A stretch of 64,000 bases of DNA from Hyphomicrobiales bacterium (GTDB lineage: Bacteria > Pseudomonadota > Alphaproteobacteria > Rhizobiales > OSC116). Where the stretch lies: positions 69,969-133,968 of the forward strand of contig NVUH01000005.1 in NCBI GenBank assembly GCA_002401855.1, read 5' to 3'. This document shows, piece after piece, positions 2,573 to 59,156 of the stretch. Position numbers and translations under genes: made by a program. Under the pieces are notes generated by a model. That model was not told the DNA's origin. It did no database searches and saw nothing but the letters and a program-made list of their open reading frames with translations. Position 1 is the stretch's first letter. Each line of letters starts with the position of its first letter.

Positions 2573-3439
2573 TTATTTTTGGCATGACGGGCAATAAAAG
2601 GTCGAGCGGCCAGATTGCACAATGCGGATAATTTTGTCTTTACACTTATCCGTCACGCAATCCTTACCCTCACGGCCATAAGCCACAAAACGATGCTGAA
2701 AATAGCCCAAATTACCATCGGCTTGGCGGTAATCATTAAGTGTCGAGCCACCTGCTTCAATCGCCTCGGCCAGAATGTCTTTAATGATCGGCACAAGCTG
2801 TATGCAGGCTTTGGTCGGCTTGTCAGCTTTGCTCGCCAATATGCTGGCAGGGCGAGAGGGATCAACCTTGGCGCGAAACAAAGCTTCGCATACATATATA
2901 TTGCCCAAACCCGCTACAATTTTCTGGTTGAGCAGATGATTTTTTATATTGCCACTTTTTCCAGCTGACTTTTTGGCCAGATGCGCGGCATCAAAATCAT
3001 CAGTCAATGGCTCAGGGCCAATGTCGCGGATTAATTTATGAGCCTGCCACTCACCTTGCTCGGCCAGCACCAAAAACCCAAAGCGCCGTGGGTCATTATA
3101 AACAACTTCCGTGCCATCATCCAAATAGAACACTACATGATCATGCTTTTGTTTTTCCCGCATCTTGGCTTCGTTATGCGAGAAAATGGTGAATTTACCC
3201 GACATGCCCAAATGGCCAATAAGCGTTTGCTTGTTTTTGCTGCTGTGAAAATGCATCAACAGATATTTAGACCTGCGCTCAATGTCGGCAATCTGCTTGC
3301 CTTCTAGTGTTGCCGCCAAATCGCTATCAAACTCAAACCGCAGATTTTTACGGTTAAGCTCAAGCTTGACCAGTGTTTTGCCTTTCATAGCAGGCAGTAA
3401 GCCTCGGCGAACGGTTTCAACTTCGGGCAATTCGGGCAT
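2573..3439 (-). CDS. mutM: Formamidopyrimidine-DNA glycosylase (Fpg/MutM)
   Basis: N-terminus MPELPEVETVRRGL (catalytic Pro2) when started at ATG 3439. C-terminal zinc finger C..C...CPSC. Confidence 0.9.
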   Translation of the reverse strand: MPELPEVETVRRGLLPAMKGKTLVKLELNRKNLRFEFDSDLAATLEGKQIADIERRSKYLLMHFHSSKNKQTLIGHLGMSGKFTIFSHNEAKMREKQKHDHVVFYLDDGTEVVYNDPRRFGFLVLAEQGEWQAHKLIRDIGPEPLTDDFDAAHLAKKSAGKSGNIKNHLLNQKIVAGLGNIYVCEALFRAKVDPSRPASILASKADKPTKACIQLVPIIKDILAEAIEAGGSTLNDYRQADGNLGYFQHRFVAYGREGKDCVTDKCKDKIIRIVQSGRSTFYCPSCQK

Positions 3440-3559: not shown

Positions 3560-4327
3560 ATGCCTGAAACGCAGCAAAAAACCACCCATTTTGGCTTTAA
3601 AACCGTGGCCGAAGACGAAAAACAGGGCATGGTTTACAATGTGTTTGAAAAAGTTGCCGAGCAATATGACTTGATGAATGACGTGATGACCGGCGGCATG
3701 CACCGCATTTGGAAAGACGCACTCATCGATTGGGCAGCCCCACCAAAACACGCAGGCGATTATAAACATTTAGATGTGGCAGGCGGCACTGCCGACATCG
3801 CCTTTAGAATGCTCGAAAAAGCTGGCAAAAACGCCCACTCCACAGTGTGTGATATTAATGAGCATATGCTCAAAGTCGGCGAAAAACGCGCATTGGCAAA
3901 ACCCTATAAAGATCGCATTGAATTCACCTGCGGTAATGCCGAAACCTTAAGCTTCGAAGACAATCATTTTGACATTTACACCATTGCCTTTGGCATTCGC
4001 AATGTCACCCGTATGGACGTGGCGTTAAAAGAAGCTTATCGCGTCCTCAAACCTGGTGGGCGGTTTCTATGTTTAGAAGTCAGTAAAATGCAAATTGCTG
4101 CTGTCGAGAAATTGTATGATAAAATCAGCCTCAATCTTGTGCCAAAAATCGGTGAAATGATTGTCGGGGATGGCACGCCTTATAAATATCTGGTCGAATC
4201 GACACGGCGCTTTCCTGACCAAGAAACATTCGCGCAAATGATCAGGGATACGGGCTTTAGCCATGTTGACCATCGTAATTATTTGGGTGGCGTGGCGGCC
4301 ATTCATTCTGGCTATAAGATCGGGTAA
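3560..4327 (+). CDS. ubiE: Ubiquinone/menaquinone biosynthesis C-methyltransferase UbiE
   Basis: HFGF...V..VF..VA..YDLMND signature, SAM motif LDVAGGTADIA, 255 aa. Confidence 0.9.
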   Translation: MPETQQKTTHFGFKTVAEDEKQGMVYNVFEKVAEQYDLMNDVMTGGMHRIWKDALIDWAAPPKHAGDYKHLDVAGGTADIAFRMLEKAGKNAHSTVCDINEHMLKVGEKRALAKPYKDRIEFTCGNAETLSFEDNHFDIYTIAFGIRNVTRMDVALKEAYRVLKPGGRFLCLEVSKMQIAAVEKLYDKISLNLVPKIGEMIVGDGTPYKYLVESTRRFPDQETFAQMIRDTGFSHVDHRNYLGGVAAIHSGYKIG

Positions 4328-55635: not shown

Positions 55636-55664
55636 ATGCCTAAGCTTGCTTAGGCATTTTTTTT
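55636..55664 (+). terminator. Terminator hairpin overlapping the 3' end of the convergent hydrolase gene
   Basis: AATGCCTAAGC-TT-GCTTAGGCATT followed by a T-run. The same bases encode ...YIKKNA-stop on the minus strand. Confidence 0.7.
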
Positions 55665-56474
55665 GATGTAGGCAGCGATGAATGCTGCCAGTGGTTCATC
55701 GCGCAAGATGCGTTTGTGGCCTAGGCCTTGGGTTGCATGAAACTCACCATTTGGCCAGTTTTTTTGCAAATTGGTAAATTCGGAAAATGGGATTTCTTTG
55801 TCATTTTCGTCATGGATAATTAGCGGCAATCTGGCTTTATATATATCACTATTGATTAGGCTAATAGAATCGACGGTGTGTTGGGTTAGTGCGTTTAACT
55901 TATCTAGCATCAGCTTTTGTGCTTTAAGTGATAAGTGAATGGTGGCAAAATATTTGTTAAATACGGTGCGTATATTGGTTGGCGCGGATATGAAGACCAG
56001 AATTTTAGGTAATGTTATATATTTATGTAATAAGCCGATGATGGCGCCACCCATAGAGTGGCCAATATAGGCTGCAGGCTTTAAGTCTTGTGATGCTAAA
56101 TCTTCGATTAAGGCCAAAGTCATGCTTAAAATTTGTGTTTTGGTGCCTGGTGAGGCGCCATGGGCAGGGGCGTTCCAGCCAATAACTTGATAATTTTGGG
56201 CTAATAATGCCCGAATGATGACATGAAATTGAGTGCCGCGTGATTCCCAGCCATGGCATAAGAATATAAGCGGGGCAGCTGGGTCACCCCAAAGGGTGGC
56301 GCGTCTGCCGCTGCTAAATGTGAGCTGTGTGCCTTCATTAAACAAAGCCAGCTCTTGCTCATTTCTGTCAAATTTACGCGGTCTGCTGAATAGGCTCAAC
56401 GCTAGGTTTGCTGCCATATTGGGCGAGGTGGTGGAGAGAATATTTATGAATGTGGGAATGTATTTTCTGAGCAT
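55650..56474 (-). CDS. Alpha/beta hydrolase
   Basis: 274 aa. HGWESRG, nucleophile elbow GHSMGG, C-terminal GLGHKRIL. Confidence 0.8.
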   Translation of the reverse strand: MLRKYIPTFINILSTTSPNMAANLALSLFSRPRKFDRNEQELALFNEGTQLTFSSGRRATLWGDPAAPLIFLCHGWESRGTQFHVIIRALLAQNYQVIGWNAPAHGASPGTKTQILSMTLALIEDLASQDLKPAAYIGHSMGGAIIGLLHKYITLPKILVFISAPTNIRTVFNKYFATIHLSLKAQKLMLDKLNALTQHTVDSISLINSDIYKARLPLIIHDENDKEIPFSEFTNLQKNWPNGEFHATQGLGHKRILRDEPLAAFIAAYIKKNA

Positions 56475-56552
56475 ATGTGTATCAATTATGGGGGGCCTGA
56501 TTGATTGGTTATTTTTGAATATAGTTATTAAATGCTTAAAACTTCAATAAAT

Positions 56553-56652
56553 TGCCATGCAATAACTGCATGGCAGGGTTTCGATAATGGTGCTTTTCAA
56601 TAAAAAAATATTATCTATATTGGCGTTAACAGGGAGCGATGCTCCACAATAT
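56553..56652 (+). promoter_or_regulatory. Leader/promoter module of DUF1127 cassette 1
   Basis: Palindrome GCCATGCA-N5-TGCATGGC (56553-56573). TTTTCA-N16-TATATT (56593-56620). Hairpin GGAGC-GAT-GCTCC (56632-56644). TATATT/AATATA complementarity. Confidence 0.45.
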
Positions 56653-56675
56653 AACACCATTTATGGAGAAGAAAC

Positions 56676-56861
56676 ATGGCTTTATTTACAGCGAATAAAA
56701 ATGCAAAATCAAAAAAATCAACTGGTCTATTGGCTAGATTTAATGAATCGGCTAAATTGCGCCGTGCTGAAAAAGCATTGCTTAAATTAGATGATCGCAT
56801 GCTTTCTGACATTGGTGTGTCTCGCGGTGATGTTCATGGTAAAGTTTGGGGCCAATTCTAA
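56676..56861 (+). CDS. DUF1127 small protein (paralog 1)
   Basis: 61 aa. KLRRAEKALLKLDDRMLSDIGVSRGDV matches the DUF1127 signature (R-rich helix + LSDRxLxDIGxxRxD). RBS GGAGA. Confidence 0.85.
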   Translation: MALFTANKNAKSKKSTGLLARFNESAKLRRAEKALLKLDDRMLSDIGVSRGDVHGKVWGQF

Positions 56862-56909
56862 ACCTAACCGCTAATAATTAGATGCGCAAATTTTTTATAG
56901 GATAAAAAC

Positions 56910-57074
56910 ATGGCTTATATTACACATACGGATGAACTAAAAACAACTTCATCTATCTTTGCTAAGATTTCTAAATTCTTGAAGAGTGTTGGAAATTCTT
57001 TTATACGGGCGCAAGAAGCTCGGGCGCGTCAACATGTTAAAAAATATATGACCAAAAGCTATAAACCTTTTTAG
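56910..57074 (+). CDS. Possible 54-aa basic peptide co-transcribed with DUF1127 paralog 1
   Basis: Manual ORF (below track cutoff): MAYITHTDELKTTSSIFAKISKFLKSVGNSFIRAQEARARQHVKKYMTKSYKPF. AGGA lies 8 nt upstream. The only terminator follows it. Confidence 0.3.
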   Translation: MAYITHTDELKTTSSIFAKISKFLKSVGNSFIRAQEARARQHVKKYMTKSYKPF

Positions 57075-57113
57075 GTTGTTGCTAAGAATTTTGGTTAAAG
57101 TGTATTTTAAAAA

Positions 57114-57143
57114 GCCTTTCACGATTGTGAGAGGCTTTTTGTT
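57114..57143 (+). terminator. Rho-independent terminator after cassette 1
   Basis: GCCTTTCAC-GATT-GTGAGAGGC followed by TTTTT. Confidence 0.75.
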
Positions 57144-57163
57144 TGTGAAGATATTATGACGCT

Positions 57164-57279
57164 AGCTATGCAATGAATGCATGGCTGGTGCGTTATAACT
57201 GTGCTTTTCATCATGGCTTAGAGTGCCTATATATAAGTTATTAGATGAGCAAGGGCTCTTCTTATTTGCCAAATATAGG
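57164..57279 (+). promoter_or_regulatory. Leader/promoter module of DUF1127 cassette 2
   Basis: Palindrome AGCTATGCA-N5-TGCATGGCT (57164-57186). TTTTCA-N17-TATATA (57205-57233). Hairpin GAGC-AAGG-GCTC (57247-57258). CCTATAT/ATATAGG (57226-57232 / 57273-57279) overlaps the AGGA RBS. Confidence 0.45.
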
Positions 57280-57288
57280 ATTAATATC

Positions 57289-57474
57289 ATGGCTTTATTT
57301 ACATTGACAAAAACAGACAAAACTAAAAAAACTACCGGCTTTATTGCAAAATATAGCGAAACTGCTAAATTGCGCCGCGCCGAAAGAGAATTGAATAAAA
57401 TGAGTGATCGTATGCTTGAAGATATTGGTGTATCTCGCGGCGATGTGCACGGTAAAATTTGGGGTGAGTTCTAA
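57289..57474 (+). CDS. DUF1127 small protein (paralog 2)
   Basis: Start moved to internal ATG 57289 (MALFTLTKTDKTKK...). KLRRAERELNKMSDRMLEDIGVSRGDV. Confidence 0.85.
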   Translation: MALFTLTKTDKTKKTTGFIAKYSETAKLRRAERELNKMSDRMLEDIGVSRGDVHGKIWGEF

Positions 57475-57510
57475 GAACTAACCTAACCAACAGCCGAATA
57501 TAGTTTCTGA

Positions 57511-57546
57511 AGCCTTCTGATATTTTTAATGTCAGAGGGCTTTTTT
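57511..57546 (+). terminator. Rho-independent terminator after cassette 2
   Basis: GCCTTCTGA-N11-TCAGAGGGC followed by TTTTTT. Confidence 0.75.
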
Positions 57547-57556
57547 GTTGGTTAGA

Positions 57557-57715
57557 TTTATGTTTGGCCCCTGCGGGCACAACACATCCGTGTTGCTTGC
57601 TAAGCCACTCAGCCGCTGGTCTTATTGTTTATTCACCACCCCATTTAGGCTCATTATTTTACGTTGAGTAGAGTTTGGCGAAATACCGCATGTTGGTGCT
57701 ATACGGATATTCGGG
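57557..57715 (+). repeat. Repeat-family locus H (left-half variant)
   Basis: ATGTTTGGCC..., variant core with hairpin GCACAACAC-ATCC-GTGTTGC, then GCTAAGCCACTCAGCCGCTGGTC, ATTCACCACCCC, GAGTAGAGTTTGG. Confidence 0.85.
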
Positions 57716-57746
57716 ACTGGTTAGGGTGTGTCGGTTAAATTTTGGG

Positions 57747-57861
57747 GTCATGTAATAAATGCATGGCTGGTGTGTTGTAACTGCGCTTTTCATTGTGGGG
57801 TGGATTGCCTATATATAGGTTGTTAGACGGAACAAGGGTTCCTCTTATTGCTACATATAGG
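57747..57861 (+). promoter_or_regulatory. Leader/promoter module of DUF1127 cassette 3
   Basis: Palindrome GTCATGTA-N5-TGCATGGC (57747-57767, two G-T positions). TTTTCA-N17-TATATA (57787-57815). Hairpin GGAAC-AAGG-GTTCC (57829-57842). CCTATAT/ATATAGG (57808-57814 / 57855-57861). Confidence 0.45.
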
Positions 57862-57870
57862 ATTAGTATT

Positions 57871-58056
57871 ATGGGTTTATTTACATTGACGAAAACAGAA
57901 ACAACTAAAAAATCAGCTGGCTTTATCGCAAAATATAGCGAAACTGCTAAATTGCGCCGCGCTGAAAAAGAATTGAATAAAATGAGCGATCGTATGCTTG
58001 AAGATATTGGTATATCTCGCGGTGATGTTCATGGTAAAGTTTGGGGTTCTTTTTAA
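57871..58056 (+). CDS. DUF1127 small protein (paralog 3)
   Basis: Start moved to ATG 57871 (MGLFTLTKTETTKK...). 52 of 61 residues identical to paralog 2 by my count. Confidence 0.85.
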   Translation: MGLFTLTKTETTKKSAGFIAKYSETAKLRRAEKELNKMSDRMLEDIGISRGDVHGKVWGSF

Positions 58057-58087
58057 GAATAACCAACAGCCGAATATAGTTTCTAAA

Positions 58088-58121
58088 GCCTTCTGATATT
58101 ATAATGTCAGAGGGCTTTTTT
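58088..58121 (+). terminator. Rho-independent terminator after cassette 3
   Basis: GCCTTCTGA-N9-TCAGAGGGC followed by TTTTTT. Confidence 0.75.
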
Positions 58122-58132
58122 GTTGGTTGGTT

Positions 58133-58270
58133 TTATGTTTGGCCACTGCGTGCGCAACACATCCGTGTTGCTTGCTACGCCTAACGGCGACGGCCAGTCG
58201 GCCTTGCCTCAGCCTAAAGGCTTCGGATTTTTTCCCTCGAATGGTTTTACTCATCGCATGGTGAATGAGA
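58133..58270 (-). repeat. Repeat-family locus I (variant core + inverted right-half module)
   Basis: ATGTTTGGCCACTGCGTGCG, hairpin GCAACAC-ATCC-GTGTTGC, then TACGCCTAACGGCGAC-GGCC-AGTC-GGCC-TTGCCTCAGCCTAAAGGCTTCGG, the reverse complement of the right half of C, E and F. Confidence 0.85.
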
Positions 58271-58277
58271 CGTAAAG

Positions 58278-59156
58278 TCAAACTCTAAGTATGAGTGTTG
58301 CCCAGTCGTCGATGATGTTGCGGTCTACTTCTTTGAAGCCTTGGGCTTTGAAGTAGGATGAGACCCAGTTGGCTTGGGTGGCTAGTAGGCCTGAGAGTAT
58401 TAGTGAGCCGTCATCTGTTATGTTGTTTTTGATCTCGACTGCCATTGTGGTGAGAGGTTTGGCTAAAATGTTGGCGATGATGAGGTCATAGGGGGCGTTG
58501 TCACGTAGCTCAAGGTGGTTGAAGCCCTTGGCCGTGATCGGGGTGATTAGGTTTTGGACGTTGTTGATTGTTGCGTTTTCGCGCGTGATTTGGGTGGCGA
58601 CGGGGTCTATGTCGGTGGCGATGACGCGGGTTTTTAGGACTTTGGCGGTGGCAATTGCGAGTAAGCCGGTGCCTGTGCCTAGGTCTATTGGCTTGTGGAA
58701 TGCACCGACTTTTAGCAATTTGTCTAGGGCGATTAAGCAGCCTTTAGTGGTGCCGTGATGGCCTGTGCCGAAGGCTAAATTGGCGTCAATTTCTAGGCCA
58801 ATGGCTGATTGGGGGCATTTGTGGGCATCGTGTTTGCCGTGCAGGAAAAAACGACCTGCTTGTATGGGGGCGAGGGCGGTGAGGCTCTCGGCGACCCAGT
58901 TTACATTTTCATCTAAGGTGATGATGTTGATGTCGAGTGGTGCAAGGTTCGCATCGGTGAATAGCTTGTTTAACTCATCGGCTTTGGGTTTGAATTCATA
59001 ATAGGCGCGCAAATCCCACTCTTGGCTTTCGTCATGGGTTTCGAACCAAGTGATGCTCATGGCTTCTGGCCATAGGGCTTGCTCTAGGGCATCGGCATAT
59101 TGGTTGGCGATTGATTTGCTCGCGATGCATTGCGCGTAAAAACGGGCTTCTTCCAT
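58278..59156 (-). CDS. prmA: Ribosomal protein L11 methyltransferase
   Basis: 292 aa. FGTGHHGTT, SAM motif IDLGTGTGLLAIA, ANIL. Confidence 0.9.
   Translation of the reverse strand: MEEARFYAQCIASKSIANQYADALEQALWPEAMSITWFETHDESQEWDLRAYYEFKPKADELNKLFTDANLAPLDINIITLDENVNWVAESLTALAPIQAGRFFLHGKHDAHKCPQSAIGLEIDANLAFGTGHHGTTKGCLIALDKLLKVGAFHKPIDLGTGTGLLAIATAKVLKTRVIATDIDPVATQITRENATINNVQNLITPITAKGFNHLELRDNAPYDLIIANILAKPLTTMAVEIKNNITDDGSLILSGLLATQANWVSSYFKAQGFKEVDRNIIDDWATLILRV

Follow-up and report, generated by a model that had tools for sequence, protein, structure and literature searches.

A tandem DUF1127 gene array from an uncultured marine alphaproteobacterial lineage with candidate LsrB/VtlR-type promoters and a conserved 5' leader hairpin

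With reference to the described systems, small DUF1127 genes in Brucella and atu1667 in Agrobacterium are direct targets of activation by VtlR (PMC7486931, PMC12595884), and members of the VtlR/LsrB regulon include bab1_0914, bab2_0512 and a third gene in Brucella, atu1667 in Agrobacterium and abcR1 in Sinorhizobium meliloti. The published box of this LysR-type regulator reads GCAT-N3-TG-N3-T (PMC7486931), and the Brucella motif has been given as CAATGCAGCCATGCA, with the reverse complement TGCATGGCTGCATTG (PMC12595884). The abcR1 promoter of S. meliloti (PabcR1) is LsrB-dependent and of the sigma-70 type CTTGAC-N17-CTATAT, with the box at -61 to -49 and T-N11-A motifs upstream of the box; LsrB shifts the fragment in electrophoretic mobility shift assays, and removal of the motif cut the activity more than 22-fold (PMC8844928). 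In this study, we investigated a 64-kb stretch of contig NVUH01000005.1 (hereafter the window, meaning the whole stretch), which comes from a metagenome-assembled genome (MAG) labelled Hyphomicrobiales bacterium and harbors three DUF1127 genes in tandem cassettes. The closest known system is the VtlR/LsrB regulon, and it is probable that the cassettes are independent transcription units with promoters of the LsrB/VtlR-activated type of Rhizobiales.

The three genes, all on the + strand, are paralog 1 (56676..56861), paralog 2 (57289..57474) and paralog 3 (57871..58056), each of which encodes 61 amino acids (aa) behind a Shine-Dalgarno (SD) sequence (GGAGA at 56665-56669, AGGA at 57277-57280 and AGGA at 57859-57862, respectively). 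The start codons at 56676, 57289 and 57871 are separated by 613 and 582 bp, and the products score 34.3, 39.6 and 39.0 bits against Pfam DUF1127 (PF06568, YjiS-like), all above the gathering cut-off of 23.3, which bears out the tandem trio reported in a preliminary description of this locus. The same description had placed paralogs 2 and 3 at about 85% protein identity with paralog 1 more diverged, and the measured values are 85% for 2 versus 3 and 67% for 1 versus 2. The products are exact matches of the hypothetical proteins COB24_04535/40/45 of this MAG (PCI88005-PCI88007), their closest relatives are labelled OCS116 cluster bacterium, and they share the distinctive C-terminus GDVHGKVWGxF. 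Syntenic loci of relatives were collected by exact-protein look-ups and a genome scan, and every upstream region was extracted. The syntenic order in the relatives is an alpha/beta hydrolase gene (-), DUF1127, an open reading frame (ORF) of 53-56 aa, zero to three more DUF1127 genes, PrmA (-) and UvrD (-); the total number of DUF1127 copies ranges from 1 to 4, and single copies are also found in other contexts. An element order common to the upstream regions of all the relatives was observed, namely the dyad ATGCA-N5-yGCATrGCTG, GCTTTT, (C)CTATAT, a short hairpin and the SD sequence.

The upstream palindrome of the cassettes consists of ATGCA-N5-TGCAT followed by GGCTG-N3-T, and thus includes the LsrB/VtlR box. 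Its presence in every cassette had been claimed before, and the pattern ATGYAATRAMTGCATGGC indeed gave three mismatch-free + strand matches in the window, each upstream of a DUF1127 gene, the fourth match being the first palindrome on the opposite strand. The cassette 1 operator (56553..56580, +) is the dyad TGCCATGCA-ATAAC-TGCATGGCA with the core ATGCA-N5-TGCAT at 56557-56571, and its LsrB/VtlR-like box GCATGGCAGGGTT (56568-56580, +) has one mismatch, AG for TG. The cassette 2 operator (57166..57191, +) comprises ATGCA-ATGAA-TGCAT at 57168-57182 and the box GCATGGCTGGTGC at 57179-57191, in which the last base is C for T, and the cassette 3 operator (57748..57773, +) comprises ATGTA-ATAAA-TGCAT at 57750-57764 and the box GCATGGCTGGTGT at 57761-57773, which matches the strict published box exactly. 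Cassettes 2 and 3 carry TGCATGGCTG, identical to the Brucella motif, and cassette 1 carries TGCATGGCAG.

Box and dyad are each more frequent than in shuffled sequences. The strict box was detected in 11 of the 22 unique upstream regions of the family (0.35 in shuffles) and the dyad in 16 of them (0.01 in shuffles). Of the 23 upstream regions tabulated for the 61-aa subfamily, 18 have the dyad centre 51-52 nt from the -10 and three have it at 49 nt. In the 802 kb scanned, TGCATRGCTG was matched 27 times, with 25 of the 27 matches lying within 260 nt upstream of a DUF1127 domain. A metagenome scan returned only distant DUF1127 relatives, which were used for the box test and not for the hairpin; 18 of their 65 unique upstream regions contain the strict box (0.63 in shuffles) and 12 contain the dyad (0.1 in shuffles), and proteins with three DUF1127 repeats are among the box carriers. 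An LsrB-type box is thus common upstream of metagenome DUF1127 genes (about 28% of the distant unique regions examined), a frequency which supports DUF1127 proteins as the conserved core output of the regulator.

One promoter-like element per cassette, earlier described as TTTTCA-N16/17-TATA(T/A)(T/A) and confirmed here as TTTTCA-N16/17-TATAT, follows the operators. In cassette 1 (56593..56620, +) the -35 CTTTTC lies at 56593-56598 and the -10 CTATAT at 56615-56620 across a 16-nt spacer, with a predicted start at about 56625-56629. Cassettes 2 (57204..57232, +) and 3 (57786..57814, +) have 17-nt spacers and a C before the -10; their -35 CTTTTC lies at 57204-57209 and 57786-57791, their -10 CTATAT at 57227-57232 and 57809-57814, and their predicted starts at about 57237-57240 and 57819-57822, respectively. 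Against the CTTGAC-N17-CTATAT type, the -10 matches at six of six positions and the -35 at four of six, with spacers of 16-17 nt. PabcR1 was read directly from an S. meliloti chromosome record, in which lsrB and the two ar15/AbcR genes were located, and it shows ATGCGCAAACGGCATGGCTGTCAT spanning -72 to -49, counted from the ar15/AbcR start. Cassette 2, which reads ATGCAATGAATGCATGGCTGGTGC from 57168, aligns with PabcR1 without gaps over 72 nt (57168-57240), and the dyad, -35 and -10 are all in register, the hexamers being TTGCCG versus TTTTCA at -35 and GCATAC versus CTATAT at -10 in PabcR1 and cassette 2, respectively.

The start sites of the window were calibrated on two S. meliloti promoters of the same geometry, duf1127_3 and abcR1. 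In duf1127_3, which adjoins pheA, TGCAT precedes CCTATTT by exactly 48 nt, an offset identical to that of the window, and the mapped starts at 256985 and 256982 (Table S1, PMC12218461) lie 5-8 nt past that -10. By transfer, transcription in the window would begin ahead of all three hairpins. A second promoter, TTGTTA-N17-TCTTAT with the hairpin in its spacer, was considered and rejected, its putative -10 being lost in L013 and L009_2 (L numbers denote loci), and no fit to sigma-54 or EcfG patterns was seen by eye in the cassette sequences.

It should also be considered that a heat-shock-type (RpoH-like) sigma factor, alone or together with the activator, recognises these promoters, which would make this a stress-induced array. 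The CcaF1 operon of Rhodobacter, driven by RpoHI/HII, offers a likeness, and several S. meliloti DUF1127 genes are stress-responsive. The -10 CCTATAT of most copies fits the S. meliloti RpoH1 consensus CTTGAA-N16-CCTATAT equally well, with matching N16 spacing (PMC8844928), so that the sigma factor is ambiguous. However, the -35 CTTTTC matches CTTGAA at only three of six positions, against four of six for the sigma-70 form CTTGAC, and the validated LsrB-dependent PabcR1 is a sigma-70 promoter. Sequence alone does not separate the two sigma factors, and on balance we regard reading by an RpoH-like factor as rather unlikely.

Each cassette further carries a short stem-loop in its leader. The hairpin of cassette 1 is GGAGC-GAT-GCTCC (56633..56645, +), that of cassette 2 (57243..57262, +) is GAGC-AAGG-GCTC at 57247-57258 with an outer AGA/TCT extension, and that of cassette 3 (57825..57845, +) is GGAAC-AAGG-GTTCC at 57829-57842 with the same outer extension. 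All three had been described before, the first of them with coordinates one base off from the position given here. They would lie about 4-8 nt inside the 5' ends of the predicted transcripts. By itself, a hairpin of 4-5 bp is unremarkable (per-sequence shuffle p of 0.04-0.65 for the window copies); its persistence at one position in diverged relatives, with compensatory changes, goes beyond chance expectation. A stem was detected in all 18 distinct leaders of related genomes, 13-20 nt after the -10, with the exception of the diverged paralog L001_2, in which the distance is 31 nt. The pairs P1-P4 are formed in 70 of the 72 cells of these 18 leaders, and both sides have changed at P2 (GC to AU), P3 (AU to GC), P4 (GC to CG or AU) and P5 (GC or AU). 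At P4, three leaders carry G-U, and since such pairs function only in sense-strand RNA, this argues against the hairpin as a DNA operator. The paired fraction is 0.925 compared with 0.829 +/- 0.02 after re-dealing the 3' letters, and none of 5000 shuffles attained the observed fraction.

For the seven class-2 leaders, RNAalifold returned the same hairpin with the AGA/UCU extension; pair counts give a helix that is 100% paired with compensatory change in two of four pairs, and the covariation score is 0.286 against 0.105, the former being attained in 2 of 500 shuffles. MAFFT alignments of the whole leaders or of the hairpin segments placed the 3' arms out of register because the loop lengths differ, so a hairpin-anchored table was used instead. 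A covariance model built from the class-2 leaders found the class-1 leaders weakly (13.9-23 bits) and in partial alignments, and it was not used for counting. An alternative hairpin, TTGTT...AACAA, which overlaps the 5' arm in some class-2 leaders, was set aside, since covariation is lacking and cassette 2 has not retained it. The preliminary description had held that the hairpin changes its sequence yet keeps its pairing, and that loss of the pairing in homologous leaders would speak against it; the pairing is conserved in the other genomes as well.

These counts bear on the idea that the non-coding layout is a mere residue of recent tandem duplication and that the hairpin is without function. 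Cassettes 2 and 3 are indeed 83-98% identical across promoter, leader, terminator and about 60 nt past the terminator, the copy number among relatives varies from 1 to 4, and an individual hairpin of 4-5 bp readily arises by chance. Yet single-copy orthologues have the same layout, as do genomes with only 64-70% protein identity (L013, L014, L020 and L025), the operator is shared with S. meliloti abcR1, and the leader outside the named elements has diverged to a mean column identity of 45% with the stems still paired through both-side changes, which makes a duplication residue quite improbable.

Taken as a mechanism, a LysR-type activator would bind the dyad ATGCA-N5-TGCAT-GGC-TG-N3-T, with the dyad centre at about -65 and the box GCAT-N3-TG-N3-T between about -61 and -49, and would offset the weak -35 (CTTTTC versus the consensus CTTGAC), which is placed 16-17 nt upstream of the consensus alphaproteobacterial -10 (C)CTATAT. 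Transcription from 5-8 nt past the -10 would then give short mRNAs ending at strong intrinsic terminators, monocistronic in cassettes 2 and 3 and bicistronic with a 54-aa ORF in cassette 1, each with a stem-loop of 4-8 bp near its 5' end that is presumably under selection to stay paired. We infer that an LsrB orthologue may exist in this lineage and bind the dyad. The preliminary description had read the shared conserved cis-elements as a sign of coordinated control, which we retain, and since small DUF1127 genes are established targets of VtlR/LsrB activation, this control most likely operates on transcription, in a manner already described. The cis-element itself had been presented as undescribed, a claim that we do not maintain, as the dominant conserved element is a DNA operator that agrees with the published LsrB/VtlR box and occupies the published position of -61 to -49 (PMC7486931, PMC8844928, PMC12595884). 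The observations of that description were thus largely right, and its interpretation was right in part only.

Besides the ambiguity of the sigma factor, several points weigh against the LsrB-type reading. No LysR-type gene was detected in the 64-kb window by a Pfam scan (ten ORFs of 264-356 aa, four of them of LysR-like length), nor was any LsrB-like gene found in the related family loci. In a search with the S. meliloti LsrB protein, the best 120 matches were all close rhizobial orthologues of at least 73% identity, and LsrB has been called unique to Rhizobiales (PMC11975290). NCBI taxonomy places the OCS116 cluster in Alphaproteobacteria incertae sedis; the MAG of the window is, however, labelled Hyphomicrobiales. 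Cassettes 1 and 2 are each one base off the strict box, and the start sites of the window are transferred rather than mapped. As regards the hairpin, the table is anchored on called hairpins and is thereby biased in favour of pairing, the stem is short, the leader sequences are related, and GAGC recurs in most 5' arms. The leader of S. meliloti duf1127_3 (22-25 nt) lacks a hairpin of this kind, indicating that the hairpin is clade-specific and lies outside the known system.

The dyad might instead be bound by another regulator, either another LysR-type protein or an unrelated dimeric factor recognising ATGCA-N5-TGCAT. The dyad conforms to the generic T-N11-A rule for LysR proteins, LsrB is itself only presumed in the lineage, and a LysR-family gene adjoins DUF1127 at no fewer than 17 distant loci (L026, L027, L033, L034, L038, L063, L069, L072, L076, L083-L086, L102, L105, L108 and L109), on the opposite strand and just upstream except in L109. 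These neighbours are only 25-42% identical to LsrB and are thus not LsrB orthologues, and their arrangement suggests a wider LysR-DUF1127 pairing. On the other hand, the match in the window extends to the specific box GCAT-N3-TG-N3-T at the same position as in validated LsrB promoters, and the genes downstream belong to the family at the core of the known VtlR regulon; binding by another regulator is consequently judged unlikely.

A different view of the leader, put forward in the preliminary description, is that the hairpin, possibly together with a CCTATAT/ATATAGG pairing in cassettes 2 and 3, forms a post-transcriptional or autoregulatory element, either bound by the peptides or switching access to the SD. 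The conserved pairing with compensatory changes is compatible with this, and CcaF1, a DUF1127 protein, is described as RNA-binding (PMC8034643). Furthermore, when RNA is folded from upstream of the -10, the -10 region pairs with the SD region in all three cassettes (z = -3.1 in cassette 1), the TATA-rich segments being self-complementary. The CCTATAT and ATATAGG motifs are present as described, but the SD-occluding role is not supported: CCTATAT is the -10 box, so that the pairing is absent from the primary transcript, and it is lost in L013, L014, L021 and L025. A relevance of the -10/SD pairing, confined to read-through RNA, is unproven. Folding of the predicted transcripts gave no SD-sequestering alternative consistent across relatives, and the z-scores of the transcribed leaders are unremarkable (-0.68 in cassette 2 and +0.14 in cassette 3).

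The leader is, moreover, only about 50 nt long, and the Rfam search which the preliminary description had proposed returned no RNA family for the leaders. In Rfam 15, no relevant match was found at the gathering score or at E up to 10; the best scores in 56300-58400 were 12-30 bits against cut-offs of 37-100, and the only match in the window reaching its gathering score was a signal recognition particle RNA elsewhere. As for autoregulation or RNA binding by the peptides, nothing here points to either, and the small DUF1127 proteins of Agrobacterium are reported to act on the kinase PhoR by protein-protein contact (PMC12501420). A post-transcriptional or autoregulatory element of this kind is therefore held to be quite unlikely. 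Our best guess is that the hairpin would tune mRNA stability or translation, and we do not think that it acts as a ligand- or protein-responsive switch. We give a still smaller chance, and deem it very unlikely, that the hairpin is a genuine regulatory RNA element rather than a passive stabiliser, or that the -10/SD complementarity silences translation of read-through RNA in arrays. In the former case the hairpin could be a recognition site for DUF1127 peptides or an RNase and allow feedback across the array; in the latter, each copy would be expressed only from its own LsrB-type promoter.

Compared with the VtlR/LsrB regulon, the locus shares the occurrence of several small DUF1127 paralogs per genome, a putative box at about -61 to -49 with a left half-site that completes a T-N11-A dyad, the alphaproteobacterial CTATAT -10 with N16/17 spacing, and the gap-free 72-nt register with PabcR1. 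It differs in being a tandem array of 61-aa proteins in an uncultured marine lineage with a 54-aa companion gene, and in its conserved 5'-proximal hairpin, which is missing from the S. meliloti duf1127_3 leader. Comparatively, the CcaF1 and CcsR1-4 "cuckoo" small RNAs (sRNAs) of Rhodobacter sphaeroides also combine a DUF1127 gene with tandem structured RNA elements and stress-type promoters. The cuckoo repeats of R. sphaeroides are sRNAs in the 3' region with CCUCCUCCC loops, whereas whole gene cassettes are repeated here; CcsR-type CCUCCUCCC loops were not found 3' of the genes or, within one mismatch, anywhere near the locus, CCTCCTCCC does not occur in the region, and there was no Rfam match. 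The S. meliloti duf1127_1 attenuator, with its 279-nt leader, 29-aa upstream ORF and premature termination (PMC12218461), is likewise a case of a DUF1127 gene whose leader controls its expression, in contrast to the leader of about 50 nt in the window. Neither a conserved upstream ORF nor a terminator between the start site and the gene was seen here, and the class-1 leaders have no hairpin followed by a T run.

A further parallel is hp1 of Escherichia coli ompA, a 5'-proximal stabilising stem-loop of a bacterial mRNA. The window hairpins resemble it in that a short stem-loop near the predicted 5' end is combined with a strong terminator hairpin at the 3' end, on an mRNA that is small and probably abundant; unlike ompA-type stabilisers, they would leave 3-8 unpaired 5' nt, which is the limit for protection, and the likeness is one of functional analogy. 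In all, the locus for the most part adds another instance of an arrangement already described, now from a new lineage and as a tandem array. It would carry the link between LsrB/VtlR and DUF1127 beyond the host-associated Rhizobiales, into an uncultured marine lineage akin to the OCS116 cluster. The only new items are the covarying 5' hairpin and the 54-aa companion gene, small and clade-specific additions by which the current understanding is not overturned.

The companion gene is a conserved 54-aa ORF (56910..57074, +) with the SD sequence AGGA at 56899-56902 and the pattern MAYITH...QEARAR...KxYM..PF, which follows paralog 1 and makes cassette 1 bicistronic. It lacks NCBI annotation in this MAG and was absent from the preliminary description. 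It is found at the same position in every related locus with 43-94% identity, and its 16 protein clusters all belong to this clade. No Pfam family matched it, and the possibility that it is a DUF1127 homologue was discarded after hhalign gave a probability of 0.7% over the first five residues only. A terminator had been claimed after each DUF1127 gene, and this holds for genes 2 and 3, both of which have strong ones, namely the intrinsic terminators of cassette 2 (57509..57549, +, with narrower limits of 57509-57543; 16-pair stem and T run) and cassette 3 (58085..58124, +, with narrower limits of 58085-58118; 15-pair stem and T run); for gene 1 it does not, as the intrinsic terminator of that unit (57109..57146, +, with narrower limits of 57109-57140; 14-nt arms, 93% complementary, and T run) comes only after the 54-aa ORF.

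Beyond the terminators of cassettes 2 and 3, an element of about 60 nt was observed at 57545-57606 and 58120-58181 (+), the two copies being 92% identical. It holds the hairpin CAACAC-ATCC-GTGTTG and is also present in the nearest relative, L007, at 3193-3270 and 3755-3832, where one copy has the stem CGATAC/GTATCG, equal to two compensatory pairs; it was absent from the more distant loci and gave no Rfam match. On the other side of the array, the best-formed dyad, with 9-nt arms (56553-56575), lies in the divergent intergenic region between the alpha/beta hydrolase gene (55650-56474, -) and paralog 1. Because it sits between divergent genes, the cassette 1 operator could also act on the hydrolase gene, which is syntenic in all the array-bearing relatives.

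A few further observations were made in the other loci. In L021, the DUF1127 gene at 1711-1890 has an in-frame stop after codon 20 (...GIYAK*IETAKL...) with operator, promoter and hairpin intact, and represents either a pseudogene or an assembly artefact. Proteins of about 200-225 aa with three DUF1127 repeats were found on soil metagenome contigs (L031, L053, L067, L068, L073, L079, L082, L091, L098 and L100), and seven of these loci (L031, L053, L067, L073, L079, L082 and L098) have the same GCATTGCTGC..TGCA box, placed about 122-131 nt ahead of the first ATG. The PLSDB record CP090106.1, labelled 'plasmid pSymB', is the S. meliloti chromosome under a wrong label, because it is 3.72 Mb long and contains rpsB, bamA, gltA, glnA, trxB and lsrB. 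In L110 (1100-1190), which is S. meliloti duf1127_3 next to pheA, TGCATgccTAattT stands 48 nt before CCTATTT, and because this spacing matches the geometry of the window, the highly expressed duf1127_3 may also be an LsrB target.

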